Source: a virus. Taken from it: 64,000 nt of DNA. A program made the translations under genes and the position numbers. Location: IMG/VR virus record IMGVR_UViG_3300008339_000021, positions 1-64,000 of that record. One strand, 5' to 3'. Below, one piece after another: positions 892-54,158 of the stretch. Numbering within the stretch: the first letter of the stretch is position 1; each line of letters begins with the position of its first letter. The notes beneath the pieces were generated by a model. That model did no database searches. It had not been told where the DNA came from and worked only from the letters and a program-made list of their open reading frames with translations.

Positions 892-902
892 AAAGAAAGA
901 TT

Positions 903-2072: not shown

Positions 2073-2080
2073 TTGAAACA

Positions 2081-2156: not shown

Positions 2157-2168
2157 AAATAAAATTCT

Positions 2169-4461: not shown

Positions 4462-4465
4462 AATT

Positions 4466-5032: not shown

Positions 5033-5037
5033 CTTTG
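5005..5037 (+). promoter_or_regulatory. Bacteroidota-type sigma70 promoter (-33 TTTG / -7 TAnnTTTG)
   Basis: TTTG at 5005-5008, a 21-nt spacer, then TAACTTTG at 5030-5037, ending 14 nt before the ATG at 5052. Confidence 0.65.
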
Positions 5038-5051
5038 TTAAAACCAACAAA

Positions 5052-5396: not shown

Positions 5397-5419
5397 CATA
5401 AATAGTTTAATTCTACCAG

Positions 5420-5452
5420 AAGGGAGTGTTTACAGGCACTCCCTTTTATTTT
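5420..5452 (+). terminator. Rho-independent terminator
   Basis: Stem AAGGGAGTG / CACTCCCTT followed by TTATTTT. Confidence 0.75.
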
Positions 5453-5488
5453 AACTTAACGGGGGGACAGCTTAACTGAACAAATCTT

Positions 5489-7387: not shown

Positions 7388-7389
7388 TT

Positions 7390-9050: not shown

Positions 9051-12000
9051 TTATTTTAATTTACCTGCACTTTCAAATCCTTCTAATGCCTTATCTACTT
9101 GACCTGTGTTACCATTAATACCAACACTCTTAAGTAAGTGACCTATAACTTTTGGTGACCCCTCTTGTTGCCAGAAGTATTCACCCTCTTTTCTACTATA
9201 GTATGCTTTATCATTAAATGTAATTAGTTGGAATACATCTTCAAATATTTTAGCATATAAACTAATGGTATTTCCAAATGCAGATGTAGTTGTAGTAACC
9301 ATTTTAATATAATCATCTGCTCCAAGGTTTACACCAGCAATTGTTGGTAGTGGAACAAATGCTGAAGTTTCAGCTTGTACACCTAATAATAATAAAAGCA
9401 TATGATTTTGAATAAATCCCCATGTTTTAAAGTCATCAGTAAATAAAGCTCCTGATCTTGCTCTAAGTTTATCAAATCTTTTCTTATCATCTGGATCATA
9501 ACCCCAAAGCATTGATGCAAGAAGAGCGGCAGTTATTATAAATAATCCTTCAGAAAGAGTTCTCATCAAATCTCTTTTTTGATCAAGTGGCATATAAGCC
9601 CAATACTTACCTTTACTTTTAATAAGTTCTTTCATTCCAAGATATGCATTTACATAAAAGCCCATAGTAGTTTTACCGGTCATCCAATCATATCTTTTTT
9701 TCATTTTTGGTTTCCAGAACTTACCATCTTCTATTTCTACTGCAGCTCCCCATCTGTTTGTAAGCATTGGTATAAACCACTTTCTCATGAATGTAAACAT
9801 TCTATATGGTAAATACATATTACCTTCAGCTTGAGCAAACTTATCATATGAACCATACAATCTGTGAGATACACCCTGAAATTTATTTCTAAACTGTTTA
9901 AATTTCTCAGATTTAGCAATTATAATTTCTTTACCTTCTTCAAATTCTATAGCACTAACAACTTTATTTCTTTGCTGAAGTTCTTCAACAGTAACACCAT
10001 ACATTTGAGCAATTTCTTCAAGTGTTTGACCTTTAACATACTCATGATATACTGTTCTATTATACCATGCTGGATCAACACCTGGTTTTAATTCAGCTAT
10101 ACCAGTATCTTTATTAAGTTGCCATGCATCTTTATAGTTAATAGTGATAGTCTTACCATTAGAAAGTCTTTGCTCTACTTTTTCAGCATTTAAAAATGCA
10201 CCAAAAAGTTGTAAAGCTGCTTCCATTTCAGCATTTTTTCTAATGTTGTACATCCACTCTCCATTCATAAGATCCTTTGACATGTTTCTAGAGACAGATC
10301 TTCCAAAGTCATCTTCAAATTTAAAGGCTGCATCAAACATTTCAATTATCTGAGATGATAATGCAGGAACACCTTTTGTATATACACTCTTAGCTACCCA
10401 CTCTAACATAGCTGGAGTAGCCCATAGTTTACCTTTTCCTAAATCTTTTACAGTAATAAATCCACCACCAGCTGATTCAATAATATTTTGTACTATCTGA
10501 CCATATCTGTTTTTTAAATCTGAAGGTAAGTTTACTGCTAGTGAAGCTCTTGATGATAGCTTTTGTAGTTTGCCAATAAATTTATCTAAGTAGACAGAGC
10601 TTCCCTCACCGCTATATTGTTTACCATAGTATTCTCTTTCAATAAGAGATCTTACTTGGCCGGCTCTATTATTAGTAGCACCCGGTTTTACAGTATGAGT
10701 AAGTTTACCTTTTATCCTATTTATAGTTTTACTATAAGTGTTAGGAGTCTTTGGTGCATTAGCTGGATCCTCTAATGTATCTAGTATAGAATTAACAAGA
10801 GGAAGAGTTTGTAATAATTGTGACTGTTGTTCAAGAGATAGTAAATACTTAAACATTCCTCTAACAACATCTGGATCAGTATTATCTATATCTAGATTAT
10901 ATAATCCAGTTACCGGAATATATGAAACTTCTTCAGAATTTAAATCAGTATTTACAAGTCTATACTCTTGAAGATTATTATCTCTTTCATAGTTGTGTTC
11001 TAATTCAACTTCATCTACAGACTTACCCCAAGCATCTCTTATTGACTGACCAATACCTTTTTTAATCTGAGAATATCTTTCACCTAATTTACCAGCTTGT
11101 AATCTAGATAGGTTATCTCTTAATACATAGCGTGGCATATCTAGATATAACTTAGACTTATTAGACTTATCTTCTTGAAATGAAAGATGAGCTTCTTTCA
11201 TTACCTCAAGGAGTTGGAATCTTACACTATTTGGTTGATCCTTAAGCCTCATGTAATCCTTGTTAATGTATCTATCATCTTTAGCAGAATTAGGATCATT
11301 TACATTAGTAAATAATCTTGGAAGATATTGACCTTTATTGTCAATGTGTACACCAACTTGTAATTCTACTTCACCTGTCTGAGGATTGTAACCTGTTCTA
11401 TATTTATCTTTTATTCTATAAATAGAGTGTCTAGCATTAGGTAAACCATTAAAGGTTTCTTCTTCTCCTGTTAGCTCATTAAGCAATACAGTTTTTTCAT
11501 AGTACTCTGGATTCTTTGGAACAGACAAAGAATTGGCCATAGTTCTTTCATACTTGACTTCAATTTTTCTAGTCTTTCTATTTTTAACCTTTCTAGAAAC
11601 GTGATTAACTCTAAACCAATCTACTAGTTTCCCATCTTTTTCTAATAGGGCTTTCATTTCATCACTGTTGATGAAATTAGTTGCATCTTCAACATTAATT
11701 GGTGCAACATTTAATCTCTGCAAATGCTCATTTAATGCATCAACATAATATTCAGTAGGTATCTTTTGAGTTAATGAAGATAAGTCAGCATAAATACTTT
11801 GCATAAGAGCCACTTCACCTACAGATAAACCAGTCTTAGCTTGTTTTTCCAACAATGTTCTATATCTTAACTTTTGTTCTGGTGTTAGTTTTGCTGGATC
11901 TTTTTTACTTATAGCAATATATAAATCAAGTTCTTCAGACTCATCTCTAGAAAGTCCAGTTTTAGTATCAAATTTAGCTTTGTAATCAATAATTTTTTGA

Positions 12001-15000
12001 TTAAGCTCTTTAATTGTTTTTAACTTATCTACACCTAACTCTTCTGGAATAGGTTGACCCTGCTCATCTTTATAAGCATACATTAAGTTATAGATTTCAC
12101 TATAGGCATTGCTGATATCAAAATCTTCTTCTATTACAGTATTAACTTTTGATTGTAAAGCTTTAAGTTTAGTAATCAAGTCTTTTCTAGAATTATAAAA
12201 GTCTTCAGTATAAGCAACTCTTAAATTTTGCTTTACCCATTCTTTTTTAGCTTCTTCTATTTCTTCAGGAGTAGCTCCTTCTTGATCCTTTAAACTTAAA
12301 AATTCATTAAATGCAGTTTGTAAAGAGCCAGCTCTTGGGATAAACTCATAATAGTCACCGGTACTTTCTCTATGTTCAAGAAGTATTCTAGTAATAGTTA
12401 AGTCATAAATACCATTGATTGGATCATCTACTTTATCACTACCATCAGCATACTTTAATGAATACAAATTTTTGTAATCTTGCCAAAGTGACTGAAGTGT
12501 AGAATATTTTTGAAATCTTTCTAGCTCATCTGTTAACTCATTTGATTCATTGTTATATGCATCAAGAGCCATTTTTCTTGCAAGCCATGCCATCTTTCCT
12601 ATATCACCATACTTATCAAACACACTATCTTTTTGATAGACTTCTTGAATGTACTCATCATGCATATAGTCTCTTTTAAAAGCTCTATATTCATCAACAG
12701 CAGTTCTAATTTTTTCTTGATCTTCAGATGACCATGCCTCATCAATTTTATATTCAAGTAAATCCTGAACATATCTCCAACCATTTCCAAACTCATTCAA
12801 AAAAGTTAATATTTCTTTTTCAACTGGCTTTTTTGTTTTAGGATCTACATAAAGTATTTTATCCTTAAACATTAATAAGTCTACTAATTGCCTTGTTTTT
12901 AAAGTACTATAACCTATTTTTTCTAAAAGTGGTTGAAGCTTTTTTCTAAATTGATATGACTTTTCCAGGGCCCTGTTATTAGCTTCAGTTATCTGATCAT
13001 TAATAAAAATAGCTAATCCACCTACTATAGGGTCATTACTAGAAGTATAGCTCTCAAAGAATCTGTTAAACCAACTTACATCTTTTAATTTACCTGACAG
13101 ACCATCAGTAATTGTATCTTGATTTAGCAAAAACTCTTTATAGTCATCAATAAATTTCTTAATGTATTTAGATTCAATTCCTTTCTTTTCATACTTTGCA
13201 TACAACTCATCTAAATCTTGATCTGTAAATGATTGTTTGATAACACCATTGTATAATTCTTCAATCTCCGAAACAGATAGTTTATTAGTTAATGCATTTT
13301 TTAAATTATTTCCAAGTTCTTGCATTAGGAAATCATTCATATACCCAGTGACTTCTACATAAAAGTTGACACTGTTTTCTTGATAGATATCTCTAATTTT
13401 TTTGTCTGCTCTGAGTAAATTATTCTTTGTCTCATTAATGAGATCTGTTAGTTCATTTGGTTGAGTAACATCAAAATCATCTTGCTCAATTAAGAATTCA
13501 TCAAATGTGTTAAACATATCATTCCATGATCTAATTGAGCTTCTATATAAAAAGAGAAGAGCTACAGCATCCCTAGAGTTAAACTCTTTTGTTTTCTGCA
13601 TTCTATTTAGATCACTAAATATATTCTGAGAAATATTATTGACTACAGCAACACTATTAATAAAACTTCTAGCTCTGTTAGTAAGATCTTGAGTTCTTGC
13701 TCTTTCAGCTTCAACTGTATTTTTGATTATCTCATCAACAGATAGGTCTTCATAGTTAGTTATTGTTTGAAAGCCAGCTAAACTTCTTTTTATTCTTGGC
13801 AATAGTTCTTTAGTACCTTTTACAAATAATGCTTCTTTAAGCATTTTCTGATACAAAGGTGATCTAGTTTTAAAGTTTATTGCCTTTTCATAAATTAATT
13901 GATTAGTAGCAAACAAGTCATTTATAGATTCTTGAATTTTATCAGCCTTAACATCTTTTACAAGTCTGTTAGCCATGTCTTTAATTTCCCTAGCAAAAGC
14001 TACTATGTCTTCATTTTTTATGGCTTCAACATTATACTCAAAAGTATCTGTCAATAACATTTCTGCTAACTTATCTATCTTTGTATTTACATTAATGTCA
14101 GCTACCTTTACTTTAGAGCCAAAAATCTTTTTAAGTAAGTCTTTTAATACACTTAATAATTTACCTATAAATGACTCAAATCCTTCTGATTCAATTTGAT
14201 TAGTTACCTGATTAGCTGCTTTTCTTTGTAAAGCATATGCTAAAGTTTCCTCCATAAAGAGGGGATTAAGTTGCCTTTCCCCATTTGCATCTATAGTATA
14301 CTCAGGTAATTCTGGATAGTTTTTTATAACATGATCTCTTATTATCTGACCTTCAGTAGTTGCCATCAAACTATTATAGAGATTGGTAAATAGAGTTTTG
14401 TTTTCTCTATAGATTGCTCTCAATAGTGGGTGGGATAATTCATGGAGTACTGTATCAAAATTTACATTGTCTCCTACTATGTATACAGCTCCTCCAAAAA
14501 AGAATGCTGGTTCTCCATTATATTTTTTCTTTCTTGATTCAAGAATTTGTCTAGCTTCTTGCTCAGTTACATACATATACTGAACACCTAATGATTCAGC
14601 AATTTTTTGTCCTAATGCATCTGCAGCTTCTTTTGCTCTCTCATTATTTATTTTTCCTTCATCAACTGTTAAATCACTTTTGTCAGGCATATTTGTAAAA
14701 TGATCATCTGCAAAAGTAAAATATCTAAAACCTCTATTAGTAAATTTATATTTGTCTTCAAAGAAAGGTTGGAAGTATATAAGATCTGTTAAGTCTTTAC
14801 CTCTACCCATGTTTATTTTTGCTTCAAAGATTTGTTTCCAGTCTTTATAGTACTGATCAAATATTTCTGGATAATTTCCTTCTTGGGTTCTTAAAAAGAA
14901 ATCAAGTACATATCTCTTAGGTCTAGTAACCATATTGGGAACAATTTTTCCCCCATAACTTGCTAATCCATCTTGTACAGTTTCTGTTTCAGTAGGATGT

Positions 15001-16673
15001 TCAACATAACCCGTAATTGTAATTGACTCTCCCTTCTTATGATCTTTACCAATAAAGGCAGTATCAAAATTCCAACTAGGAAATTGTTCTTTTAAATTTT
15101 TATACCAAGATTGTGCTTCAAGATATGGTAAAACTTCTTTTTTAAAAGTTTCAGAATTTTTTCTGCTCCTAGCTTTACTTAATGGTAAGCCTCTTTCTTC
15201 AATCCATTTAAGGAACTGAGCTGCATTTTTCTCACTGTTAAATTGCTCAAGACTAATAACACCATCAATATCATGCAGATCTTCAGATATAGCTCTTACA
15301 ACTCTACCATACTTTCTTAATACTAATGAGCCACTAAGAAAGTATTCAAATGGAGAATTAAATAATTTTTCTACAATCCCTTTAGCAAATGGGTCTCTAT
15401 TTAAACTTTGATTATAATACTTTTGCTCAAACTCTTCTCCCTTGCTTGAAAAGAACTTACCATTTGAATCCTCATAGTAACTTCTAATAAACTTCTCATA
15501 GTTCTTTTTATAAACATCATCAACAATATCTAAGACAGTGTCTCTTAGTTCAGCTTCCTTGTATATAGTTATAGCTTTATTGTCCTTAATATTTGCTTGC
15601 CACCAGTTCCATAGTTTATTGAACATTCTAATAATCCAATTTTCAGCATATTTATCTTTGTAGCCTAAACTTTCAAAGTATTCTTTGCTTATATCAGGAT
15701 TTTTTCTTTTACTACCATCATATCCATTTTCAACACCAACAACTAACATACCGGCAATAAACTCAATAATTACTTGCCTGTGTGCATATGGGTTAAATCT
15801 AGCTGGGTCATATTTGTAGATTTCTCTAACTGTTTCTGCAGCCATATCTCTCTCACCATATGGTGTAACTTCTTCCGCAGTTTGTTCATCTTCTACTTCA
15901 AGCCTTCTTGTATTGTATTTATTGTACAATTCATCATATCTGCTCCAGCTATTTATACCTTTCCAAAGCTCTAAACCAAGTTTAGATTTTTTACCAAGAA
16001 ATTGAAATATAACATTTGCAGACTGCATAGCTAATGTCTTGTCTGATACATTTCTTTTAAGTGCCATATACTTTTGAAGTATATCAAATGCAGCTAAAGG
16101 ATCCTCTTTTGTTCTTCTTACACCATTCTCATCAATCCAAGTTCTTCTATCTGAACTTATTATTTCATCAAGATCCTGATCAATTTTAATGTTTAATCCT
16201 TCCATGAAAGAAATAAGACTAGTTCTTAGTCTATTACTAAACTCCCTATTTAAAGATGAATTATTAAAGTTATCCCTCATAAACATAGGGTTTAAACTTT
16301 CATCATCCTCAAAGTTTGATACAGGTTCTTTTAGAATATCAAAGTCTTTAGTCTCTTCTTTTATTTCTTGTTGGATTCTAACATCATCAAGTATTTGGAA
16401 TAACTCATCATTTGGTTGAGCATAAAGTGTAACATTTATGTCATCCCTATAGAATCTAGATGAATATGGATATCTTGTTTGAACCTCATATGGTTCATTG
16501 AAGAAAGAATCATTTTCTTCAAGTTTTAGATTTGGATACTTGAGCTGTATAAATCTGGTAAATTCTTCATTAAATTTATTAAATTCAATTGGATCCAATA
16601 TATCATTGAATTCACCAAGTATACCTCTCTTTTTTAAATCTTCTAAAACTGTTGACCTAGATTCACAAAACAT
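9051..16673 (-). CDS. Giant virion cargo/ejection protein (~2540 aa) with nucleotidyltransferase, HExxH metallopeptidase and LysM modules
   Basis: The likely start is MFCESR at 16673, overlapping the RNAP stop as TAATG. Motifs: LSGSLVL...DLHDID...K-x4-RGKDLTD, VLHELSHP, and LysM-like YVKGQTLEEIAQMYGVTVEELQQRN. There are hydrophobic helices near the C-terminus. Its position next to the virion RNAP matches crAss-like phages. Confidence 0.8.
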   Translation of the reverse strand: MFCESRSTVLEDLKKRGILGEFNDILDPIEFNKFNEEFTRFIQLKYPNLKLEENDSFFNEPYEVQTRYPYSSRFYRDDINVTLYAQPNDELFQILDDVRIQQEIKEETKDFDILKEPVSNFEDDESLNPMFMRDNFNNSSLNREFSNRLRTSLISFMEGLNIKIDQDLDEIISSDRRTWIDENGVRRTKEDPLAAFDILQKYMALKRNVSDKTLAMQSANVIFQFLGKKSKLGLELWKGINSWSRYDELYNKYNTRRLEVEDEQTAEEVTPYGERDMAAETVREIYKYDPARFNPYAHRQVIIEFIAGMLVVGVENGYDGSKRKNPDISKEYFESLGYKDKYAENWIIRMFNKLWNWWQANIKDNKAITIYKEAELRDTVLDIVDDVYKKNYEKFIRSYYEDSNGKFFSSKGEEFEQKYYNQSLNRDPFAKGIVEKLFNSPFEYFLSGSLVLRKYGRVVRAISEDLHDIDGVISLEQFNSEKNAAQFLKWIEERGLPLSKARSRKNSETFKKEVLPYLEAQSWYKNLKEQFPSWNFDTAFIGKDHKKGESITITGYVEHPTETETVQDGLASYGGKIVPNMVTRPKRYVLDFFLRTQEGNYPEIFDQYYKDWKQIFEAKINMGRGKDLTDLIYFQPFFEDKYKFTNRGFRYFTFADDHFTNMPDKSDLTVDEGKINNERAKEAADALGQKIAESLGVQYMYVTEQEARQILESRKKKYNGEPAFFFGGAVYIVGDNVNFDTVLHELSHPLLRAIYRENKTLFTNLYNSLMATTEGQIIRDHVIKNYPELPEYTIDANGERQLNPLFMEETLAYALQRKAANQVTNQIESEGFESFIGKLLSVLKDLLKKIFGSKVKVADINVNTKIDKLAEMLLTDTFEYNVEAIKNEDIVAFAREIKDMANRLVKDVKADKIQESINDLFATNQLIYEKAINFKTRSPLYQKMLKEALFVKGTKELLPRIKRSLAGFQTITNYEDLSVDEIIKNTVEAERARTQDLTNRARSFINSVAVVNNISQNIFSDLNRMQKTKEFNSRDAVALLFLYRSSIRSWNDMFNTFDEFLIEQDDFDVTQPNELTDLINETKNNLLRADKKIRDIYQENSVNFYVEVTGYMNDFLMQELGNNLKNALTNKLSVSEIEELYNGVIKQSFTDQDLDELYAKYEKKGIESKYIKKFIDDYKEFLLNQDTITDGLSGKLKDVSWFNRFFESYTSSNDPIVGGLAIFINDQITEANNRALEKSYQFRKKLQPLLEKIGYSTLKTRQLVDLLMFKDKILYVDPKTKKPVEKEILTFLNEFGNGWRYVQDLLEYKIDEAWSSEDQEKIRTAVDEYRAFKRDYMHDEYIQEVYQKDSVFDKYGDIGKMAWLARKMALDAYNNESNELTDELERFQKYSTLQSLWQDYKNLYSLKYADGSDKVDDPINGIYDLTITRILLEHRESTGDYYEFIPRAGSLQTAFNEFLSLKDQEGATPEEIEEAKKEWVKQNLRVAYTEDFYNSRKDLITKLKALQSKVNTVIEEDFDISNAYSEIYNLMYAYKDEQGQPIPEELGVDKLKTIKELNQKIIDYKAKFDTKTGLSRDESEELDLYIAISKKDPAKLTPEQKLRYRTLLEKQAKTGLSVGEVALMQSIYADLSSLTQKIPTEYYVDALNEHLQRLNVAPINVEDATNFINSDEMKALLEKDGKLVDWFRVNHVSRKVKNRKTRKIEVKYERTMANSLSVPKNPEYYEKTVLLNELTGEEETFNGLPNARHSIYRIKDKYRTGYNPQTGEVELQVGVHIDNKGQYLPRLFTNVNDPNSAKDDRYINKDYMRLKDQPNSVRFQLLEVMKEAHLSFQEDKSNKSKLYLDMPRYVLRDNLSRLQAGKLGERYSQIKKGIGQSIRDAWGKSVDEVELEHNYERDNNLQEYRLVNTDLNSEEVSYIPVTGLYNLDIDNTDPDVVRGMFKYLLSLEQQSQLLQTLPLVNSILDTLEDPANAPKTPNTYSKTINRIKGKLTHTVKPGATNNRAGQVRSLIEREYYGKQYSGEGSSVYLDKFIGKLQKLSSRASLAVNLPSDLKNRYGQIVQNIIESAGGGFITVKDLGKGKLWATPAMLEWVAKSVYTKGVPALSSQIIEMFDAAFKFEDDFGRSVSRNMSKDLMNGEWMYNIRKNAEMEAALQLFGAFLNAEKVEQRLSNGKTITINYKDAWQLNKDTGIAELKPGVDPAWYNRTVYHEYVKGQTLEEIAQMYGVTVEELQQRNKVVSAIEFEEGKEIIIAKSEKFKQFRNKFQGVSHRLYGSYDKFAQAEGNMYLPYRMFTFMRKWFIPMLTNRWGAAVEIEDGKFWKPKMKKRYDWMTGKTTMGFYVNAYLGMKELIKSKGKYWAYMPLDQKRDLMRTLSEGLFIITAALLASMLWGYDPDDKKRFDKLRARSGALFTDDFKTWGFIQNHMLLLLLGVQAETSAFVPLPTIAGVNLGADDYIKMVTTTTSAFGNTISLYAKIFEDVFQLITFNDKAYYSRKEGEYFWQQEGSPKVIGHLLKSVGINGNTGQVDKALEGFESAGKLK

Positions 16674-27490: not shown

Positions 27491-27492
27491 TT

Positions 27493-37714: not shown

Positions 37715-37758
37715 AGTATTTTTTATATTATAAAACTATCAAAATTTTTTAAGTTTAT

Positions 37759-37775
37759 TAAATCTATAAAGTTTA
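37759..37775. promoter_or_regulatory. 17-bp imperfect palindrome, copy 1
   Basis: TAAATCTATAAAGTTTA, 15/17 identical to 44888-44904. Both copies lie in short late-region intergenic gaps. Confidence 0.5.
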
Positions 37776-40208: not shown

Positions 40209-40215
40209 GTCTTTA

Positions 40216-44841: not shown

Positions 44842-44860
44842 ATAACCGGTTCTATATATT

Positions 44861-44871
44861 TAATATACTAA
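44861..44871 (-). promoter_or_regulatory. Putative late-promoter motif TTAGTATATTA, copy 1
   Basis: The same 11-mer occurs at 61971-61981. Both copies are just upstream of - strand start codons. Confidence 0.45.
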
Positions 44872-44887
44872 TTTTTAGTTTAATGAA

Positions 44888-44904
44888 TAAACCTATTAAG
44901 TTTA
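44888..44904. promoter_or_regulatory. 17-bp imperfect palindrome, copy 2
   Basis: TAAACCTATTAAGTTTA, overlapping the stop codon of the 2542-aa gene. Confidence 0.5.
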
Positions 44905-47900
44905 TTCTTCAATTACTGTATAACCTTTTCTGATGTAATCTTCTATTTCTTTATCAGTTAATTCCATTTCTAAAAAGTTGGAATCCCCACCAAATTGTTT
45001 TTTATTTGTAGTACCTTGATTCATTTGATAATTTGGATCAAATACAATTTCATCATTTATTACAGTTAAACTTACAGGTGGCATCACCCGCCCATTTTTT
45101 ATTATAATCCTTTCTCCAGAAGGCCATACTTGAGCTTTAGGATTATTATATATATACCTTCTAGCAGTTGGATAAAGATCTTTATCATCTGTAAACAGCT
45201 CATAATCAATACCTCTATCAATTAATTGTTGTTCTGTTTCTGTAGGTATTTGACCTGCATAGTATATTCCTACAAGAGCTCCAGTTGCACCAACTGCAAG
45301 TCCAACATTTTGAAGTTTGCTTTTAAATTTGTTTTTTTTAACTTCTAAAATTTGTCTTTCATTATATATTTCAGATGCTCTAGTTTGTAATTCTTGTATT
45401 CTTTTTTCTACTGCATTATATTCAGTTTGTGCTCCCTTTGTAAATTTATTTATAAGAGCCTCTTGTTGAGCAATTAAAGCATTATATTCATTTCTTATTA
45501 AACTTAATCTAGTATTTGCGTTTATTATTCCATTATCTATTATTGAATTAATTTTATTAAAATCATCAATAGTTGATATTTGTGAAGAAGTACTAGCTTT
45601 ATTTGCTATTAAACTTTCTAATTTTTCTTTTCTTTGGAAACCTGATTTTGGAGCGGTATGATATTTCTTATATGAATATAGCATAGAGTCTACTAACTCA
45701 TCAAAGTTTCCAAACAAAGATGCATATTGAGATCTTGATGCACCATATGTTGGTGTTGCTATATCTGCATCTTTTGCAATAGCTCTTATCCCCATTGTTT
45801 CAGCCATTTCATCTAATGCAAGTTTACCTTGAGTATAGTCAGAATCAGCAATTATTAAATTTAATATATCTCGTGATTCTTTAATATTGTCAAGTTGATA
45901 TTTATACTGTGGCAAATATTTAAGAAAAATTTCTTGTACCTGTTTAGCTTCTTCTGGAGTATATACATATGTACCACTAGTTGCCCTATTAATAGATTTA
46001 ACATATGCTTCAGGATTAGATATATCAGTTTTAATACCAATTTGTCTATGACCTATAATAGCATTTTCTGTGTCATATACATGTATAGGATTTCCTTTTC
46101 TTACTGTATTTAATCCCATTCCATTTAGTGAGCCTCCTCCAGCGGCAGGATACCATTCAGTTAATGCATTTTCTATAGTTTTAACTTTGTCAGTTGTTAG
46201 TGGTAAATTGTGCGGACTAATTTCTCTTGTGAAAGTAGTCATGTTGATATAATAGTCATTCAATGCTAATTGCATTCTAGCAGGATCATTTGCTACTCTA
46301 ACTACATCATCACCTTTAAAACCCATTGCTATTAAAGCATCCATGTTCTTTGCAGGATCAGAAAGGTCCTCTACTTTAAATTGATGCCCTAATGTTGCTT
46401 TGTGACCTGCTATAGATTTAATATATGCTTCTTGACCTTTAGCTACTACTGCAGGATCACCATATTCTATTAATACATCTGGTCTTACTATATGTTTTTC
46501 TTTTGATGATTTATAACTACCCCATTTTGTTAATGGTGTTGCCTCATATGAATCTATTACTGTTTTTACTTTAGAATCAATACCATTCATAAATTCTTCA
46601 GTAGACATATTAATTTCAATAGGCTTTCCTGTTTTAATTGATTCAATTGAAGCTTTTTGAAATTGTTCAGGATAAAATTGTCTAAACAATTCAACCTCTA
46701 AAGAAGTTTCTTCTTGTGTATTTACATCTTTTCTCCATACTGGTTTTACTGTTCCATTAGGATTTTCATGTACTATATTAAAATCTAATGTTCCTTCTTG
46801 TCCATATTGTGGATACACAGAATGTTGTTTGGCTGGACCATAATCTTGAACAAAAGAAAATTTATCTTTTACATTTTTATTATAAGCACTTTCACTTATA
46901 AGAACATCTATGTCACCAGTAATATGTGGCATACCAGCTTCAGTTACAAGAACACTTGAACCAAATACTTTTGCTCCTGGTATATCAGTTTCAACTTTTT
47001 GTTTTGAATTACTTAATGAATTAACATATTCTTGAGATATAACAGGTTCATTAGTTGAAGCATCTTTTACAACTAATTCACCATCTTGTATACTATATTT
47101 TACATCTACTTTTGGTAACTCAACTTGAGCTTTTATTTTTTCCCCAGTGCTAAAATCTGTAACCACTTGCTCACCAGTAGTTACAGCACCTTTATATATT
47201 GAAGGTTGAGTTTGTTCTAAACCTTCTCCTGTTTTTACAAAGTCTTGTTTTATCTTACTATATTTATTTATATCTTGTTGCCTTTCATACATTTTTCTTG
47301 ACTTAGGTATGAGTCGGTTTTTATCTTCAAAATAGTTTTCAAACTTTCTTTTCTTAGTATTTAATAATTTACCAAGTTCCTCCTCTCTTGCAAGTAATCC
47401 TTTTTTACTAGGATCTACAGCCCAGTCATCCGGCCAGACACTTCCAAGTTCCTTTACTAATTCATCATGTTCTTTAGCTAAAGCTTTAATCTGATTATTA
47501 AAATAATTTACTTTATTTACTGTGTTTAATGCTTTTAATCCTTTCTTACCATAATCAGACATTAATGTTCTTAATTGATTAGGTATTTTTATTTTTGGAT
47601 TTCTAGATAGAAAAGCTGCTAGGATCATAATTGGTGCTCCAGCTTGTGTAACATTTCCATCTGTCTGTTCTTCATTAGCTAGACTCAATGTTGTTGCAAC
47701 TCCTCCTGCTATAATTGGCAGAGCATTAATTACATTTTTTAGTATGCTAAAGTTCTTTGGATTATTTTCCATTATATCATATAGTCTTAAAGGATATTTT
47801 TCTCCTTTTAGATTTTTATAAGTTTTATAATGTTCTCTTAGCATATCTATGGTGATAGGGTCATACTCATTTTTTAGTATTCCTTTATCCAACATGTCTT

Positions 47901-50900
47901 GTCTTATCTCTGCAACGAATGGAACTTTTTCTGTACCCTTAGAACCTGTATTAAAATACTCTAATGTCTTTTCTAGATAGTTTGGATTTGCAGTACCAAA
48001 TAATGAATGTGCTTTTGATTCTTCTGAAACAACTTCCATTCCTGGAATCTCTAATTGTTTTCCTGCTGATTTTCCACTAACTAATTGTAGTTCTTTTAAT
48101 TGCTCATCTAAGTATGTTATATTAGCTTCTTTATTTGCAAATGATCCTAGATAATGACCAAGTTCATGTGCAGTAACTTTTTTAAGATCTCCTGCTGCAA
48201 ACTTATCTCCACTTACAAATAATTGATTGTCTTTCATTCCATAGAAACCAGCCTTATCTCCAAATATTTTTTCTGTTTCTGATATAGCAGTATTAACAGA
48301 ATTTAATTCTGCTTCTAAAGGGTCAACTAAATTTTTATAATCTTGTGTTGACATCTTACCTTCATCATAAAAAATAGTAAAATAATCTATTTGATCTTCT
48401 AAACTTTTTCTTTTATTTAATTGGTTGCCATAAACTTTATTTAAATTATTCATTGTAGACATACCCTCTATCAAGGTTTCTGGTGTTTGTCCAGCTAATG
48501 ATGGAGTATTGTCAATCATTAACTGTAATCTTCTTTTGCCTTCTTCAGTTTGCCATAACTCAATTTTGTTATTTCTCATGTCATCAATGACATTGGCAGC
48601 AATTTCATTATCTGATTTATTTACTATTTGTTTTGCTTGAGTTGAAATTGATTCTTGAGATACTCCTGTGGATTGTGAAGCTTTCCATTCTTTAAACATT
48701 TCTGCATCTTTTGCAGTACCTAATGGAAGAACTTGTTCTGGCTCAAATGCTACATATGTATTACCACCTTCTCCCTGAAACATGTCTCTACCTATTACAC
48801 CATCTGCTCCTTCTAATCTAGCTTCTGTAGGTGTAATAAGATTTGATCCTAAACCACTTCCTCTAAACTCTTTAGCTTTATCAGTAAACTCATATGATTG
48901 ATCAAGGACTGTAGGATTTTCTAAATTTAACAAGACAGGTTTTCTTGTCCCTTTCATTTCCTCTAATTCATATAACCATCCTTTATCTTGTGTTGCATAG
49001 AATGGTCTTCCACTTTCAGCAAGAACTTCATCTCCTCTATTAACATGATAAAGAATATCCTGTGCTGAACTATTAGGAAATGTTTGTCTTAAATACTCAG
49101 CATATTCATCTGCCGTACCAATTTTACTTAACTCAGGATAACTATTATATATGGATTCAATTTCTGGAGTAACACCTGAAACTCCTGCAATGCCTAGTTG
49201 ATCATCTGCTGTAGTTAATGCTTGTTCTTCTGCAAGAGCTTGATCAATATTCAATGGTTGTCTAGTTGTGTTAAGTCCTTCAACTGTTCCAGAAACTTCT
49301 TTTATAGTTGCCTTCTCTGTATTTAATAAAACATATTCAGGTTGACCAAAAAGATTTGTACCTTCTATATAATCATAACCTTGTTTTTGGAGATCTTTAA
49401 GTACTGATTGTTTTATTCTTTCCATAGAACCCTCATACTTATATCCTTTAGCATTTGAGGGAAGTCTAATTTCATGTAGACCACCATTTGGATTTTCTCT
49501 AGCATATTTTAAAGCCCAAGATCCTTCTTCAAGATCTGGTGACATATAAAAGCCTGCATAACTTCTACCTTTTTTATTTTGTCTTTGAGCTAATCTTAAT
49601 GGGTCTATATCAGCTACTGTTGCATTTTTATCAAGACCTCCGTGATAGAAAACTATATCATCAGTATTTTGTGTTATTGTATTCTGATTAAGAGGATCAT
49701 ATGATTTAGCAACTTCTTTATATTCATCTGGTAATATAAATTCTTTTTCAGGCTGTCCTGCAAATGATAATGCTGCTGGATCATTTTTAACATTATATTC
49801 TTCTAATTTTGAAAATGGTACTTTAGTTTCTAAATATACCATCTCATTTGCTTTATCAATATACTGACCAGTTACTGGATCAAACACATATGTATTAACA
49901 GCATGTGGTGCACCCCTTTCTCCTACTTTTTGTGTACTCCACCATTTACCAGCTGTATTCTGAGGAAAAAATGAACCTATGCGTTCTACACCATTTTCAT
50001 CTACATATCTTATTGCAGCTGGATCTTGCATAGCCTCTGCTATTTCTGATTCAGACATTTCAGCTACTGGTCCATAATCCCAATTATTATACTCATTAGC
50101 AGTTTTACTTTCTGAAGGTAAATATCCTGGAATTTCACTTCTATATAAAGAAACTTCAGTATCTAATGTTTTTGGAATATTTTCATATACTTGAGCAGCT
50201 GTTTTGCCTTCATTCAAAAGAGTGTTAATGTTTGCACCTATATATCTGCTATTATTTGTTAAGCTTCCAATATTACTTCTCATTATTTTAAATTCACCAA
50301 GATTTGCATACTTAGTAAATCTATTTAATGGGTTTGTTAAATTAGTAAATGCTTCAGTTGCATTTCCAATATTTGGATTACCCACAACTAAACCACTCTG
50401 TAAGGGTGAATTATATAAAAATGAATAATTACCTGATGTAGGTAATACACCGAGACTACCCGGCTTTCTAAGTTCATTAATTGCTTTAAATGTATTTGCC
50501 GCAGGTTTAATAAGTGGTAAAACACCTAGACCTCCCCATAGTAAATTTTCAAATCCTTTAGCATGATCTCCTTCTGAAAACCCTTCATAGGCTTGTTGAA
50601 TATGTCCTTGTGGTTTTAATGCTTCATATGCAAAATATGCATTAAGAGCATTACCTCCTGTTAACCATGGTAGAGATTTAATTGGTGCATAAGCTAAAGC
50701 TCTTGATGCTCCTATAAGACCTAAACCTCCCATAGCAATTGTTCCTGGTAGATTATAAAGAAATGAACTTTGAAAATCCTGCATGTTGTCAGCAAGCATT
50801 GCTTTCTCATATTTATCAGCTTCTTCTTGAGTCATGTAAACTGTTTGCCCAGCCATCTCATCTGGGGTAACAAATTTTGTCAATTGTTCTCCTGTTATAG

Positions 50901-52530
50901 GATCTTTACCAGCAGGAACCTCAAATTGATATTGATAGTATTGACCACCCCAACCATCTTCATCACCTCCAACATACATTTTATTAGGTCTCCATTCATC
51001 TGTTTCACTAATTTGAACAGCTACTTTACCTTTTTTCCAATCTTCTTCATCTTGTTCTATTGTTGGAAAATATTTTTTCTTATATGCTTGTGGTTCTAAG
51101 TTTTGGTAATCTTTTAAATTATTTATTAATGCTTTATCTAAGTCTGTTGGTTCTACTACTAGATTTTTATATGTATCATCAGCAGCAAGTTTTACAAGTT
51201 CATTTGATTTTGGTTTCCACCCCCATTTACCTGAACGTAGTGCTTGAAGTATTTGTGCACCCCATTCTTGTCTACCAGTAGCATTAGGAGAAACAATATC
51301 TATATTAGCACCATGACTATCAATAAATTCTCTATCTCTTGCTAGAGTAATAATATCATTATCTGTCCACCTATCTATTAGATCTGTTGTTTGATCTTTC
51401 TCATATGGTTTTTCATAATCATCACTATATGCTATATAAGCTTTTGCATAGTTTTCTATTTCTTTAAAATCTTTTCCATATGATTTATAAAGATCTTCTT
51501 TTGTTCCTAGTTTTTTTACATTAGCTAAATAACTTACTGCATTATCTAAACTATATCCTTTCTTCTCCATTAAATCAAGGACAGCTTTCTTAGTTTGATA
51601 TTCATGGTATTCATCTGCTTGACCCATGAAATCTCCAAAGTAATTTTCTATAGTTTCTTTAGTACCTACACCAAGTTTATTTATTATATCATCTGTTCTA
51701 AGACCACTATCCCATATTCTTGTATAAATTTCATTTGATGGAAATAATTCTACATTTCCAGTAGTTTCATTTTTATTTATAAAGTAACCTTGAGCCTTAA
51801 GTTGATTTTCATATTCAGGATCTGTACTTAATCTTGATTCATATTCAGTTAATGGAATTGTTTCAAGTGGATCTAGTTTGTCAAACTTATTTTTCTTTTT
51901 AAAGTCTGCTTCTCTTTGAGCTAATTTTTCTTGCCATAATCTTTCTTCTTCTTCTTCTCTCTTTTTTTGTTCTTCAGCCAGTCTTAATTTTTCTTCTTCT
52001 TCTATTTGAAGTCCTACAGCTTCTCTTTCTGCTTCAAGTTTTGCTATTGCTTCTGGAGTAAGACACTGTCCCATATAAGGACTTGTACCTGGTTGACATA
52101 CTAATGGATTACCATTTATATCTACTGGTGCATATGGATTACTTTCTACAGAGGTTACTGTGTTACCTGAGATACCTTTATAGAAAGCCGGGGTTCCTAT
52201 GGGTGCTGTTACCATATTTCCTGTATACAAATCTGTTTTGTATCCATAAGGAAATACTGTTGGTAAAGTATTTATTATTTCTTCTTCAGTTTTTTGATCA
52301 GTTGGTAATGTATTTACTAGTTGTTCATTAGTTATTTGAACAGGTTGAATTAATGAAGGATCTACTGGTGTTGATCCTAACAAAGGATCAGTAGGAAAAA
52401 ATCCTTCTACTGGACTATTCCAATTTGATGTTACAACTGGTTGAGTTTCTTTATTTTTTTTTCTTCTTAAAAATTTAGGAGGCCAAGCTGTTTGTTCTTG
52501 TGGTATTCCTGTTATTTTATACTTTGCCAT
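44902..52530 (-). CDS. Giant polyvalent protein (2542 aa): three ADP-ribosyltransferase-like domains, HExxH metallopeptidase, Pol-beta nucleotidyltransferase and TM-like segments
   Basis: ART-like motifs: LYRSE...WWST...EKEF; FYHGG...GFYMS...EYVLLN; LYHVN...FYAT...DGVI...YVAFEPEQV. Peptidase: AHELGHY. NTase: VFGSS...GDIDV...LDF. Several Gly/Ala-rich hydrophobic helices. Confidence 0.75.
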   Translation of the reverse strand: MAKYKITGIPQEQTAWPPKFLRRKKNKETQPVVTSNWNSPVEGFFPTDPLLGSTPVDPSLIQPVQITNEQLVNTLPTDQKTEEEIINTLPTVFPYGYKTDLYTGNMVTAPIGTPAFYKGISGNTVTSVESNPYAPVDINGNPLVCQPGTSPYMGQCLTPEAIAKLEAEREAVGLQIEEEEKLRLAEEQKKREEEEERLWQEKLAQREADFKKKNKFDKLDPLETIPLTEYESRLSTDPEYENQLKAQGYFINKNETTGNVELFPSNEIYTRIWDSGLRTDDIINKLGVGTKETIENYFGDFMGQADEYHEYQTKKAVLDLMEKKGYSLDNAVSYLANVKKLGTKEDLYKSYGKDFKEIENYAKAYIAYSDDYEKPYEKDQTTDLIDRWTDNDIITLARDREFIDSHGANIDIVSPNATGRQEWGAQILQALRSGKWGWKPKSNELVKLAADDTYKNLVVEPTDLDKALINNLKDYQNLEPQAYKKKYFPTIEQDEEDWKKGKVAVQISETDEWRPNKMYVGGDEDGWGGQYYQYQFEVPAGKDPITGEQLTKFVTPDEMAGQTVYMTQEEADKYEKAMLADNMQDFQSSFLYNLPGTIAMGGLGLIGASRALAYAPIKSLPWLTGGNALNAYFAYEALKPQGHIQQAYEGFSEGDHAKGFENLLWGGLGVLPLIKPAANTFKAINELRKPGSLGVLPTSGNYSFLYNSPLQSGLVVGNPNIGNATEAFTNLTNPLNRFTKYANLGEFKIMRSNIGSLTNNSRYIGANINTLLNEGKTAAQVYENIPKTLDTEVSLYRSEIPGYLPSESKTANEYNNWDYGPVAEMSESEIAEAMQDPAAIRYVDENGVERIGSFFPQNTAGKWWSTQKVGERGAPHAVNTYVFDPVTGQYIDKANEMVYLETKVPFSKLEEYNVKNDPAALSFAGQPEKEFILPDEYKEVAKSYDPLNQNTITQNTDDIVFYHGGLDKNATVADIDPLRLAQRQNKKGRSYAGFYMSPDLEEGSWALKYARENPNGGLHEIRLPSNAKGYKYEGSMERIKQSVLKDLQKQGYDYIEGTNLFGQPEYVLLNTEKATIKEVSGTVEGLNTTRQPLNIDQALAEEQALTTADDQLGIAGVSGVTPEIESIYNSYPELSKIGTADEYAEYLRQTFPNSSAQDILYHVNRGDEVLAESGRPFYATQDKGWLYELEEMKGTRKPVLLNLENPTVLDQSYEFTDKAKEFRGSGLGSNLITPTEARLEGADGVIGRDMFQGEGGNTYVAFEPEQVLPLGTAKDAEMFKEWKASQSTGVSQESISTQAKQIVNKSDNEIAANVIDDMRNNKIELWQTEEGKRRLQLMIDNTPSLAGQTPETLIEGMSTMNNLNKVYGNQLNKRKSLEDQIDYFTIFYDEGKMSTQDYKNLVDPLEAELNSVNTAISETEKIFGDKAGFYGMKDNQLFVSGDKFAAGDLKKVTAHELGHYLGSFANKEANITYLDEQLKELQLVSGKSAGKQLEIPGMEVVSEESKAHSLFGTANPNYLEKTLEYFNTGSKGTEKVPFVAEIRQDMLDKGILKNEYDPITIDMLREHYKTYKNLKGEKYPLRLYDIMENNPKNFSILKNVINALPIIAGGVATTLSLANEEQTDGNVTQAGAPIMILAAFLSRNPKIKIPNQLRTLMSDYGKKGLKALNTVNKVNYFNNQIKALAKEHDELVKELGSVWPDDWAVDPSKKGLLAREEELGKLLNTKKRKFENYFEDKNRLIPKSRKMYERQQDINKYSKIKQDFVKTGEGLEQTQPSIYKGAVTTGEQVVTDFSTGEKIKAQVELPKVDVKYSIQDGELVVKDASTNEPVISQEYVNSLSNSKQKVETDIPGAKVFGSSVLVTEAGMPHITGDIDVLISESAYNKNVKDKFSFVQDYGPAKQHSVYPQYGQEGTLDFNIVHENPNGTVKPVWRKDVNTQEETSLEVELFRQFYPEQFQKASIESIKTGKPIEINMSTEEFMNGIDSKVKTVIDSYEATPLTKWGSYKSSKEKHIVRPDVLIEYGDPAVVAKGQEAYIKSIAGHKATLGHQFKVEDLSDPAKNMDALIAMGFKGDDVVRVANDPARMQLALNDYYINMTTFTREISPHNLPLTTDKVKTIENALTEWYPAAGGGSLNGMGLNTVRKGNPIHVYDTENAIIGHRQIGIKTDISNPEAYVKSINRATSGTYVYTPEEAKQVQEIFLKYLPQYKYQLDNIKESRDILNLIIADSDYTQGKLALDEMAETMGIRAIAKDADIATPTYGASRSQYASLFGNFDELVDSMLYSYKKYHTAPKSGFQRKEKLESLIANKASTSSQISTIDDFNKINSIIDNGIINANTRLSLIRNEYNALIAQQEALINKFTKGAQTEYNAVEKRIQELQTRASEIYNERQILEVKKNKFKSKLQNVGLAVGATGALVGIYYAGQIPTETEQQLIDRGIDYELFTDDKDLYPTARRYIYNNPKAQVWPSGERIIIKNGRVMPPVSLTVINDEIVFDPNYQMNQGTTNKKQFGGDSNFLEMELTDKEIEDYIRKGYTVIEE

Positions 52531-54158
52531 TATTTTACGATTTCAAATGTATAACCTAGTTTTTCTAATTCTAATTTAGTAGCTTCATCTACTTCATCTC
52601 CTATATCATATTCTCCTCCTGATTGCCATTTAGTTAGTCTTGGAATAGAAATATCTTCTACTACATAACCACCCTTTACATATTGATCAATTTCATTTTG
52701 AGTAAGTTCAGTTTCAATAGGTGTTGGATTGGTTCTAGCTTTTTCTTCTAGCTCTTTAATTTTTGCTCCATATTCCATCTCTGGAGAAAATCTAGATACA
52801 TAAGCAGTTCTTCCATTACCTGGTTTCATTCCAGACCACATACCTACATTAAAATCAAAGTCTGATGCCCTACCATTGCTATCTACATAGATAGGTTTTC
52901 CATCTTCTCTATAATGGGAAAATGTCATAGCATGGGAAGTACCCGGTCCCTTAATATTTATTATATCTCCAGTCTGTAGTAATCCTTTTTCTTGTGCATC
53001 AAAATCTGGGTCAGTTGTTTTAGTTACTCTTTCAAAAGGTACAGTACCTTTATTTACAGCATTAATAAATTTATCATTTGACTCAAATGCAGTTTTAGAA
53101 ACATCACTAAACTCAGGCTCACACATCCAACCTGATCCTGCAGCCCACATACAGTTTGCAGGATTAGGCATTCCCAATCTACTTTCTAAAGTTGGTACAC
53201 CTCTGTTTTTCCAAGCAGTTGCTGCACTCATGCCTTTACCTTCTTCTGGATAAACATCATATATAACATCCCATGCTGTATCTACAACTTCTTGTGGAAG
53301 GTATCTTCCTCTATCCAACATTTCTTGGATCTGATCTGTTTCTAAACAACGTCCTTCATCAACACATAATGTTTCAGTACCTGTTACTACATCTGATATC
53401 TCTGCTTCTTTTTTAACTGGAATCTCTGGAAATTCTTTTTGCTCAACAATACCTCTCAAATGATATGGTATAGGAACCATATAATTTGACATTGCATTAT
53501 TAGTTTTATCTGCAGGTGCAGCATCTGGATTTTGTTGTCTCCATATATAATAGTCCTGAAGCATATTCTGCATGTAATTATAATCTTCAGGCAACCATTG
53601 TGTAGGTTCTCCTATTTGAGTTTCTGCAGCTTTAATTTGCTGATCCCATTCTTCTGGGGATTCTGGAAAAACACCGGGAATATATGTAGGTACTATTTGA
53701 ACAGGTGATACATCTCCACCACCTTGAAAGTACATTGCTTGTGGATCATAGATCTTTTTCTTATAGTTCTTCTTTTTGAATAAAGGATTCTTTTTAAATA
53801 AAGAGTTCTTTTTACTTTTTGCAAATATTCTATTAGTGGCTAATAAACTTTTAGAATACTTTTTACTACCACCTTTCTTTGCTTCTTCTAATGGAACTTC
53901 AGTAACTACATTTGTATCAAACTGATGCATACCGGAATATGGAGAAAGAACTTTTCCATTTGCCATAATAGGCACTCCTGTATTAGACATATCAATTGTA
54001 CCATCCTCAGTATAGATATCCATTGACTGTTTGTTTCTAAATGGAGAATCATCTCTGTATCCCATTTTAGAATTATAATCAATGTCTCTTTTCTTAGCCG
54101 GCTTTTTTGCTTTGTCTAAGTTTTTTAAAGTTTCTAAAAGTAACTTCTTGTTATACAT
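52530..54158 (-). CDS. Virion protein with an NlpC/P60 (papain-like Cys-His) peptidase/amidase domain
   Basis: ANCMWAA (Cys), then LQTGDII...GTSHAMTF (His) and YVDSNG. The N-terminus has a GYRDDSP...VTEVPL module and a Lys-rich segment. Confidence 0.65.
   Translation of the reverse strand: MYNKKLLLETLKNLDKAKKPAKKRDIDYNSKMGYRDDSPFRNKQSMDIYTEDGTIDMSNTGVPIMANGKVLSPYSGMHQFDTNVVTEVPLEEAKKGGSKKYSKSLLATNRIFAKSKKNSLFKKNPLFKKKNYKKKIYDPQAMYFQGGGDVSPVQIVPTYIPGVFPESPEEWDQQIKAAETQIGEPTQWLPEDYNYMQNMLQDYYIWRQQNPDAAPADKTNNAMSNYMVPIPYHLRGIVEQKEFPEIPVKKEAEISDVVTGTETLCVDEGRCLETDQIQEMLDRGRYLPQEVVDTAWDVIYDVYPEEGKGMSAATAWKNRGVPTLESRLGMPNPANCMWAAGSGWMCEPEFSDVSKTAFESNDKFINAVNKGTVPFERVTKTTDPDFDAQEKGLLQTGDIINIKGPGTSHAMTFSHYREDGKPIYVDSNGRASDFDFNVGMWSGMKPGNGRTAYVSRFSPEMEYGAKIKELEEKARTNPTPIETELTQNEIDQYVKGGYVVEDISIPRLTKWQSGGEYDIGDEVDEATKLELEKLGYTFEIVK

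Follow-up and report, generated by a model that had tools for sequence, protein, structure and literature searches.

Gene organization of the late region

The window analysed here comprises the first 64 kb (64,000 nucleotides, nt) of IMGVR_UViG_3300008339_000021, a linear virus entry of IMG/VR that is 90,205 bp long and 76% complete according to CheckV. Our subject is the block of eight open reading frames (ORFs), P0001 to P0008, found on its minus strand between positions 9051 and 54158. They encode proteins of 2543, 3605, 2285, 1125, 810, 1541, 2542 and 542 amino acids (aa), respectively, and are transcribed in the order P0008 to P0001. A preliminary description of this DNA had proposed that the virion of a crAss-like phage delivers these proteins as a kit of enzymes acting on the host, and that about 45 kb is devoted to them. 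The eight ORFs do fill 45,108 nt, half of the record, and together encode 14,993 aa, but only about 2,300 of these residues (a figure obtained by arithmetic from the domain limits) make up accessory enzyme modules.

The block lies among the late genes, which run on the minus strand from 63,996 down to 9051, and replication genes (for a DNA polymerase, an exonuclease, an ATPase and an HNH-type protein) occupy the plus strand from 1 to 8595. Genes within the block adjoin or overlap by 1-14 nt, and gaps of 7-61 nt flank P0005 and P0006. The muzzle gene P0009 is located directly upstream, preceded by virion structural genes.

54158..59707 (-): P0009, crAss muzzle protein; Pfam PF25731 (crAss_MUZ), E 1.6e-33, and PHROG virion structural protein; context outside the block
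52530..54158 (-): P0008, 542 aa, first gene after the muzzle; no family
44902..52530 (-): P0007, 2542-aa polyvalent protein with six modules
40216..44841 (-): P0006, 1541 aa, low complexity, with a CW_7 repeat
37776..40208 (-): P0005, 810 aa, rich in Q, M and G, with a ten-cysteine cluster
34337..37714 (-): P0004, 1125 aa; no family
27493..34350 (-): P0003, 2285 aa, in the place of phi14:2 gp67 by synteny
16673..27490 (-): P0002, giant virion RNA polymerase protein, 3605 aa; 6vr4_A match and tblastn
9051..16673 (-): P0001, gp65-like giant protein, last gene of the late operon; collinear BLASTP matches to gp65

Whole-protein scans of the nine proteins P0001-P0009 against Pfam and PHROGs gave almost no matches. 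NCBIfam, searched with ten excised domains, gave none below E 0.008, its only relevant match being a metzincin motif at E 0.023; phmmer against the PDB returned 6VR4 as the sole match, and a DNA-level search against GenBank phages returned no match.

A virion RNA polymerase block of the phi14:2 type

The crAss-like identity given in the preliminary description is borne out by the muzzle match listed above and by the RNA polymerase (RNAP): residues 2070-2823 of P0002 match 6vr4_A, the virion RNA polymerase of Cellulophaga phage phi14:2, at E 1e-23. In tblastn the P0002 core found 77 phage records at 21-26% identity, crAss-like by name among the matches listed, including phi14:2 g066 and many genes labelled "putative RNA polymerase" in gut crassviruses.

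19853..19867 (-): DFDID catalytic motif of the RNAP (P0002 residues 2542-2546), found by motif scan as GADFDIDK

By homology, P0002 is a two-barrel virion RNAP with a DFDxD site, related to phi14:2 gp66. Pairwise BLASTP of P0001 against phi14:2 gp65 gave collinear matches at residues 4-91 (E 9e-6), 1939-2087 (E 1e-3) and 2275-2403 (E 1e-4), and on this comparison P0001 is a weak but collinear relative of gp65. Homologs of P0001 align from residue 4 of the listed ORF, an ATG that is probably the true start. In phi14:2 the genes follow one another as g071, g070 (593 aa), g069, g068, g067 (1797 aa), g066 (RNAP, 2180 aa) and g065 (1421 aa), all annotated from tandem mass spectrometry (MS/MS) of virions, and the operon stops after g065. 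The order of muzzle, cargo and RNAP trio is thus common to the two phages; pairwise comparison of P0003 with gp67 detected no sequence similarity.

The Drobysheva preprint reports that gp66 and its two neighbours are present in virions and that the trio is fused in some phages. It also describes a zincin-like protease domain in gp65, for which RNAP activation or peptidoglycan digestion is proposed. For crAss001, Bayfield et al. place the cargo proteins gp45 and gp46 and the RNAP-associated gp47, gp49 and gp50 in the virion, and estimate the room for cargo at about 5.5 MDa. Beyond the homologies just described, tblastn against 50,697 GenBank phages found no relative of P0003, P0004, P0008 or either half of P0001, and in the same phages there was no detectable counterpart of NTase 1, NTase 2, M2 (all defined below), the PD-(D/E)XK protein, P0004 or P0008.

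Two side observations concern the trio. P0003, P0002 and P0001, the counterparts of the phi14:2 RNAP-block proteins, total 8,433 aa with only four cysteines, all at termini facing the next protein: C2282 of P0003 (fourth from the end), C3 and C3604 of P0002, and C6 of P0001, which is residue 3 from the likely ATG (window 16671-16675, 27482-27490 and 27502-27504). The gp65 protein of phi14:2 also begins M-S-C. Distant P0002 homologs (P0172-P0187) terminate in Pfam DUF7831 (PF25176), a family of unassigned function, to which P0002 itself has no match.

A probable nucleotidyltransferase cassette and a zincin in P0001

Homologs of P0001 were collected with residues 400-1000 as query, yielding 133 giant metagenomic proteins, and the counts given here are from the 120 listed of these 133. 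Contigs of this lineage reach 126 kb. Local BLAST divides P0001 into modules: a short N-terminus is followed by module B, a cassette spanning about 140-670, and the rest of the protein from about 670 forms the body.

14673..16265 (-): module B (P0001 residues 140-670), mobile cassette holding NTase 1; in 93 of 120 listed homologs
14730..15410 (-): NTase 1 core (P0001 425-651), GS 451-452, DxD 471-473, third Asp 594
14106..14675 (-): zincin 1 (P0001 670-859), HELSH 747-751 and Glu 812
9954..10034 (-): LysM repeat (P0001 residues 2217-2243), Pfam PF01476, 22.5 bits against a cut-off of 20.9

The nucleotidyltransferase (NTase) region is present in 93 of the 120 homologs and the body also in 93, but both occur together in only 66; module B must therefore be attached to a different body in at least 27 proteins, and the body in turn occurs in proteins that lack module B. 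Identity within module B is 43-74% (alignment A2), and a search for related loci in IMG/VR with module B found one relative. The two GS..DxD sites reported in the preliminary description are near-invariant in their families. In NTase 1, 92 of the 93 homologs with this region retain G451, S452, D471, D473 and D594, and in NTase 2, described below, the corresponding positions are kept in at least 90% of 37 rows. The bare GS..DxD pattern is non-specific, with 2-8 matches per protein. Both NTases possess the hG[GS] and [DE]x[DE] motifs and a third carboxylate, placed on strand-helix-strand elements of the models.

The AlphaFold model of P0001 140-900, built on a 48-row alignment, has a mean predicted local distance difference test score (pLDDT) of 79. 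It resembles, weakly, LnuA, MenT1, TglT and ANT(2''), which are minimal Pol-beta nucleotidyltransferases. NTase 1 is likely to have a Pol-beta-type fold. Downstream lies a helix of the form K..GR.KD..D, which may resemble AbiEii motif III; a search of the genome with Pfam AbiEii (PF08843, DUF1814) gave no match.

The histidines, the glutamate and the downstream glutamate of zincin 1 are kept in 92-95 of 95 homologs. AlphaFold models the region as a zincin of the anthrax lethal factor (LF)/PPEP-like kind, in which strands 587-597 lead into helix 603-621, the bearer of HExxH, and E812 lies on the long helix that follows. The LysM repeat is present in many P0001 homologs.

Six modules in P0007

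With P0007 residues 830-2029 as query, a full HMMER scan of 1.84 billion representatives yielded 744 matches at E ≤ 0.001. Mapping the best 150 of these resolved the region into six independent modules, each found in many other architectures.

49666..50043 (-): M0 (P0007 830-955), first of the three ADP-ribosyltransferase-like domains of the preliminary description (domain 1, about 790-955); fold unassigned, 10-sequence family
49243..49728 (-): M1 (P0007 935-1096), candidate H-Y-E ADP-ribosyltransferase, ART-PolyVal-like
48541..49179 (-): M2 (P0007 1118-1330), ART-PolyVal-like without the catalytic Glu
47641..48651 (-): M3 (1294-1420), helical, and M4 (1435-1630), zincin 3 with HELGH 1455-1459; M3 and M4 together 1294-1630
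46444..47397 (-): M5 (P0007 1712-2029), NTase 2, GS 1858-1859, DxD 1873-1875, third Asp 1916

Solo versions occur among the matches listed: M5 in a 241-aa protein and M1 in proteins of 170-176 aa.

The preliminary description had seen three tandem domains like ADP-ribosyltransferases (ARTs), and one of them holds up well. In M1, Y962-H963, G993-F994-Y995 and E1065 are kept in 13-14 of 14 sequences, which gives the triad H963, Y995 and E1065. In the ESM-Atlas, 29 of its 30 named neighbours are ART-PolyVal clusters (score 0.91, 177 shared features). Its relatives in GenBank phages (tblastn) are exclusively DarB-like, PLxRFG or virion structural polyvalent proteins, in 16 records that are not crAss-like. 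M1 itself has no match to Pfam ART-PolyVal (PF18760), and its 170-aa homolog reaches E 0.01. Taken together, M1 is a convincing candidate ART. M2 scores 21.6-23 bits against PF18760, below the cut-off of 31.2, and keeps 58 positions in at least 85% of 11 sequences that are 39-46% identical. M0 conserves WW863-864 and E930, and its leads to ART families in the ESM-Atlas are weak; its assignment as an ART is doubtful. Comparison of the M1 and M2 alignments with hhalign (A4 against A5) gave matches dominated by common long helical flanks. In a 149-row alignment (A3) the ART rows proved to be misaligned, at 13-20% identity against 30-60% in A4, and it was set aside.

In zincin 3, H1455, E1456, H1459, D1475, E1534 and E1541 are invariant in 20 of 20 sequences. 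The AlphaFold2 pLDDT of M3 and M4 exceeds 90 over most of their length, with HExxH on model helix 153-170 after strands 135-146, and one of the 20 relatives matches DUF6782, a family of putative metallopeptidases. In BFVD the P0007 model has its best match in the 593-aa structural protein g070 of phi14:2 (E 9e-3, prob 1.0), to which the P0007 core shows no significant pairwise sequence similarity. Two HExxH strings in g070 (L003 817-2598) were seen in non-significant BLAST high-scoring segment pairs, and a cultured crassvirus may thus have a double zincin as its muzzle-proximal cargo protein.

In the 37-row alignment of NTase 2 (A1) the G, the S and the first D are invariant, and at least 90% of the rows retain the D at +2 and the third D. 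The AlphaFold model of P0007 1294-2029 (mean pLDDT 84) places them on a strand-GS-helix unit, a strand with DxD and a later strand with the third Asp. Foldseek against the PDB gave 35 NTase-fold entries among the 45 rows listed, including CdnE, TM1012, MenT1, JHP933, Cid1, TUTases and ANT(2''). The preliminary description had suggested AlphaFold and Foldseek as a check on its domains; for the NTases they did return NTase-fold neighbours, but weak ones, the best E for NTase 2 being 0.045. The A1 profile run against the PDB returned coiled coils only, its rows sharing long helical flanks, and a search for related loci in IMG/VR with NTase 2 found no relative.

The C-terminus of P0007 (window 44902-44970) carries the motif ELT..EI..Y...GY.V, conserved in the P0007 family. 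Variants occur near the ends of P0008 (52530-52720) and P0006 (40216-40290) and also inside unrelated polyvalent proteins such as P0211. The motif may be a packaging, docking or processing signal.

Further domains in P0002, P0003 and the remaining proteins

25037..25474 (-): SLOG/cpYpsA-like domain (P0002 673-818), variable slot; phrog_10774, tblastn, P0172
24191..24703 (-): zincin-like region 2 (P0002 930-1100), LYHEAWHAF at 997; motif conservation
29182..29373 (-): PD-(D/E)XK nuclease core (P0003 D1666, D1681-x-K1683, Q1708xxxY1712); Pfam PDDEXK_1 and motif

The single SLOG-like domain of the preliminary description is supported. Residues 673-818 of P0002 match phrog_10774 at E 1.6e-13, small phage proteins annotated "molybdenum cofactor carrier" (tblastn, E down to 8e-11), and a region of the homolog P0172 that overlaps an above-threshold cpYpsA match (48 bits). 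The domain's own Pfam match (cpYpsA, PF12694) is weak, at E 0.047 on the segment and with no match in the genome search. The segment is found in 40 of 58 P0002 homologs, and the same SLOG-like domain lies near the N-terminus of a 2608-aa "putative RNA polymerase" in cultured Kehishuvirus phages.

The block contains exactly three HExxH motifs (P0001 747, P0002 997, P0007 1455), as the preliminary description had counted, where its composition would predict 0.06, and each of them is conserved. In P0002 the motif persists in 58 of 58 homologs, the most distant at 29% identity, and it marks the surrounding region, 930-1100, as a candidate zincin. Whatever the chemistry, the conservation of M2 and of the three HExxH motifs implies selection. 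The genome gave no match to MPTase-PolyVal (PF18818), a zincin metallopeptidase (MPTase) family, though HExxH with Glu and an LF-like fold are present.

The one PD-(D/E)XK nuclease noted in the preliminary description has its motif in place, with D1681-I-K1683, and it is kept in two of two IMG/VR relatives. The PDDEXK_1 score is 22.0 bits on the cut segment, exactly the cut-off, and 21.5 bits in the genome search, so that a RecB/Cas4-type PD-(D/E)XK core in P0003 is a borderline prediction. Two more PD-(D/E)XK matches lie outside the block, one in the replication module (window 3973-4386, 27.3 bits) and one in a 306-aa frame beyond the window (G000:C1:83756-84100).

Among the other proteins, P0006 has a CW_7 repeat at residues 568-597 (43051-43140; Pfam PF08230, E 1.9e-7, 31.1 bits against 25). 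Residues 416-543 of P0005 (window 38580-38965) hold ten cysteines in CxC-like pairs, for which no family was found. In P0008, a Cys stretch (53100-53160) and a Ser-His stretch (about 52900) look by eye like a papain-like cell-wall peptidase, presumably of the NlpC/P60 or CHAP type, with no match in Pfam, PHROG or GenBank phages.

Module turnover among relatives

Several of the accessory modules differ between relatives, being present in some and missing or swapped for other enzymes in others. P0001 relatives carry ART-PolyVal (P0076, P0093), GNAT (P0100) or a PIF1-type helicase (P0083), and P0002 relatives carry cpYpsA, a 2OG-Fe(II) oxygenase, a Zeta-toxin/AAA_33 kinase, GNAT or ART-PolyVal. 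P0177, which is without SLOG, has the 2OG-Fe(II) oxygenase at residues 577-788. In the IMG/VR relative G002, a 2390-aa P0007 ortholog matches only residues 1292-2029 and is without M0-M2, and the genome retains NTase 1 and the SLOG/zincin region. P0188, a representative that is 90% identical, matches P0007 from residue 1087 on and in a 19-residue stretch at 953-971, and is without most of M1. The ART part is thus the least stable part of P0007, and the zincins are the constant part of the giant proteins. The module turnover fits an arms race with host defences.

Packaging and function of the block

We consider it probable that the block is the cargo and RNAP operon of a divergent, uncultured crAss-like phage, in which giant proteins have grown into phage-type polyvalent proteins and injected modules act on the host. 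Packaging of P0001 and P0002 is a fair inference from their homology to the phi14:2 virion proteins gp65 and gp66; as cargo, P0002 would be well grounded and P0001 reasonably grounded, and the other six are so placed by position alone. The proteins would be made late, packaged into the capsid and tail in the manner of crAss001 and phi14:2, and ejected partly unfolded ahead of the DNA. LysM, CW_7 and the low-complexity parts would help to build or open a passage through the envelope, the RNAP would begin early transcription, and the zincins would cut the long chains or activate the RNAP. Once freed, the modules could work on host targets before the first phage gene is expressed. The NTases might nucleotidylate tRNA ends, proteins or small molecules; the ART might ADP-ribosylate a host macromolecule, as with T4 Alt; the nuclease might cut DNA, and SLOG might bind or process a nucleotide signal.

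Several points weigh against this. Searches with curated families (Pfam, NCBIfam, PHROGs, AbiEii, MPTase-PolyVal, DUF6782) gave nothing above threshold for either NTase or any zincin, and neither model (P0001, P0007) had a Foldseek match at E ≤ 0.001. The output of two VIA runs on the P0007 model was taken up by a helical hairpin (model residues 68-133) and is uninformative on NTase 2. M2 has the H and the Y but T-Y where the Glu is expected, and M0 has no conserved Arg, the Arg first proposed for it lying outside the conserved family. The LysM of P0001 and the CW_7 of P0006 suggest that part of the block may work in the envelope or periplasm rather than as cytoplasmic effectors. Because P0003, P0004 and P0008 are without relatives in GenBank phages, their cargo status comes from gene position only. 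Among such blocks, virion presence is known only for phi14:2 and crAss001. Finally, one copy of each block protein amounts to 1.70 MDa, and a cargo space of crAss001 size (about 5.5 MDa) fits at most about three sets, so that copy numbers would have to be low or some proteins not packaged.

A bolder version, which we offer as possible but on balance doubtful, is that the cargo is a plug-in platform for toxin-family enzymes. Its MenT/LnuA-like NTases would be the first virion-delivered NTases, nucleotidylating tRNA ends, defence proteins or signalling nucleotides within seconds, and the zincins would be release switches.

The main rival explanation is that the modules serve the phage's own machinery, the block then being an ejectosome together with a transcription apparatus. 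The zincins would mature or activate the cargo and RNAP or digest the wall, the NTases would tail or repair RNA or prime transcription, the nuclease would process phage DNA, and the ARTs would modify phage proteins. The function proposed for the gp65 zincin in the Drobysheva preprint points this way, as does the phage N4 virion RNAP (vRNAP), whose packaged C-terminal domain includes an HExxH domain. The zincins here also belong to the conserved core and not to the variable part (58 of 58; 20 of 20), LysM and CW_7 are cell-wall binders, and the close relatives that were examined retain both NTases and SLOG. However, the nearest structural neighbours of NTase 1 (MenT1, TglT, LnuA and ANT(2'')) are toxin or antibiotic-modifying NTases, M1 has relatives in DarB-like anti-restriction polyvalent proteins, and the slots are filled in relatives by conflict-type enzymes (Zeta toxin kinase, GNAT, ART, AlkB-type oxygenase). 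A fixed housekeeping role is hard to square with replacement by unrelated conflict enzymes. The toxin-like neighbours and the module replacement thus oppose this explanation for the variable parts, but not for the zincins, and as an account of the whole block we judge it unlikely.

It is less probable still that the proteins are late but mostly unpackaged, serving host shut-off, defence suppression or superinfection exclusion in the producing cell, or being tail or envelope parts, with only the RNAP trio as cargo. The large mass of the block relative to the crAss001 cargo volume would be explained in this way, and P0003-P0008 have no homology link to virion proteins verified by mass spectrometry. 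Yet the gene order matches that of phi14:2, where every gene is annotated from virion MS/MS, the P0007 core has as its best BFVD match a phi14:2 structural protein encoded beside the muzzle-side genes, and the tight coupling of the genes argues against it.

Very improbable, in our estimation, is that several of the flagged domains are inactive, being decayed relics or chance motifs, above all M0 and M2 and possibly the P0002 HExxH. The missing Glu of M2, the lack of a conserved Arg in M0 and the sub-threshold family scores would be expected of such remnants, but the 58 conserved positions of M2, the perfect retention of HExxH among the P0002 homologs and the excess of this motif over expectation all speak against decay or chance. 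A prophage or a bacterial polymorphic toxin locus was rejected, the sequence being a 90,205-bp IMG/VR virus contig with crAss hallmark genes.

Comparison with known systems

As presented by Iyer, Burroughs, Anand, de Souza and Aravind (Iyer 2017, PMC5512222), polyvalent proteins are giant late or virion-neighbourhood proteins in which several unrelated catalytic domains share one chain. Their hub is a zincin MPTase, which the authors group with anthrax lethal factor, and the ART is their commonest modifier; the domains are shuffled and also occur solo, the proteins are predicted to be injected and then processed, and the Pol-beta NTase was found only in proteins of conjugative elements. The block shares with them at least two unrelated catalytic domains per polypeptide (NTase and zincin in P0001; ART or ARTs, zincin and NTase in P0007; SLOG, zincin motif and RNAP in P0002) and the late, virion-side neighbourhood. 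It also shares domain shuffling and solo forms (NTase 2 in 241 aa, M1 in 170-176 aa, module B on 27 bodies). It differs in that the scaffold is the crAss two-barrel RNAP block, in having two conserved minimal NTases in phage-type protein, and in its larger scale. The main text of Iyer 2017 makes no mention of crAssphage or Cellulophaga.

Cultured crassviruses (phi14:2 gp67-gp66-gp65; crAss001 gp47/gp49/gp50 with cargo gp45/gp46) have the same order after the muzzle, a homologous RNAP and a gp65-like end protein with a zincin; phi14:2 g070-g065 have a combined length of 6,990 aa, compared with 14,993 aa for the present block. N4 gp50 and the N4-like vRNAPs are packaged giant RNAPs fused to an HExxH zincin, with relatives that carry an ART or a lysozyme. 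The N4 polymerase is T7-like and single-subunit whereas that of the present block is of the two-barrel type, and the sources consulted describe no NTase, SLOG or PD-(D/E)XK modules in it. T4 Alt, a head-packaged ART injected with the DNA, is a precedent for retargeting host proteins, but it is a single-domain R-S-E enzyme, whereas M1 is H-Y-E, ART-PolyVal-like and inside a 2542-aa chain. Unlike the minimal Pol-beta NTases of conflict systems (MenT1, TglT/MenT3, LnuA, ANT(2''), TM1012, JHP933), those of P0001 and P0007 are embedded in giant phage proteins with no antitoxin partner; the structural alignments are at 12-15% sequence identity.

The preliminary description knew of no such combination in a characterised phage, which puts the novelty too strongly. 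Pol-beta NTases, ARTs, zincin MPTases and GNATs are already polyvalent-protein domains, the zincin of the crAss RNAP block is in print, and a SLOG-like domain is present in the Kehishuvirus RNAP gene. As the domain classes have already been described in polyvalent proteins, the combination is a variant and not a new kind. Database annotations of gut crassviruses already point to the theme: some RNAP genes are labelled "DprA-like" or "DUF1768", and cr130_1 has an "ART-PolyVal-like domain-containing protein". No paper linking the cargo of crAss-like phages to polyvalent proteins, NTases or ARTs turned up in our literature search; supplementary tables (Iyer 2017, Bayfield), which may bear on novelty, were outside its scope.

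Implications for crAss-like phages

crAss-like phages are among the most abundant on Earth, and most are uncultured. If the modules are instead part of the ejection and transcription machine, they would mark where this machine differs from the cultured models. If they are delivered and active, crAss-like phages would carry a preformed, fast-evolving enzyme kit on the proteins that bear their RNAP. The idea known from T4 Alt and the polyvalent proteins would then extend to a new scaffold and to toxin-type nucleotidyltransferases, and the block would be a source of candidate counter-defence enzymes. With constant zincins beside swappable modules, the long-standing idea that injected polyproteins are processed by MPTases can be put to a concrete test.

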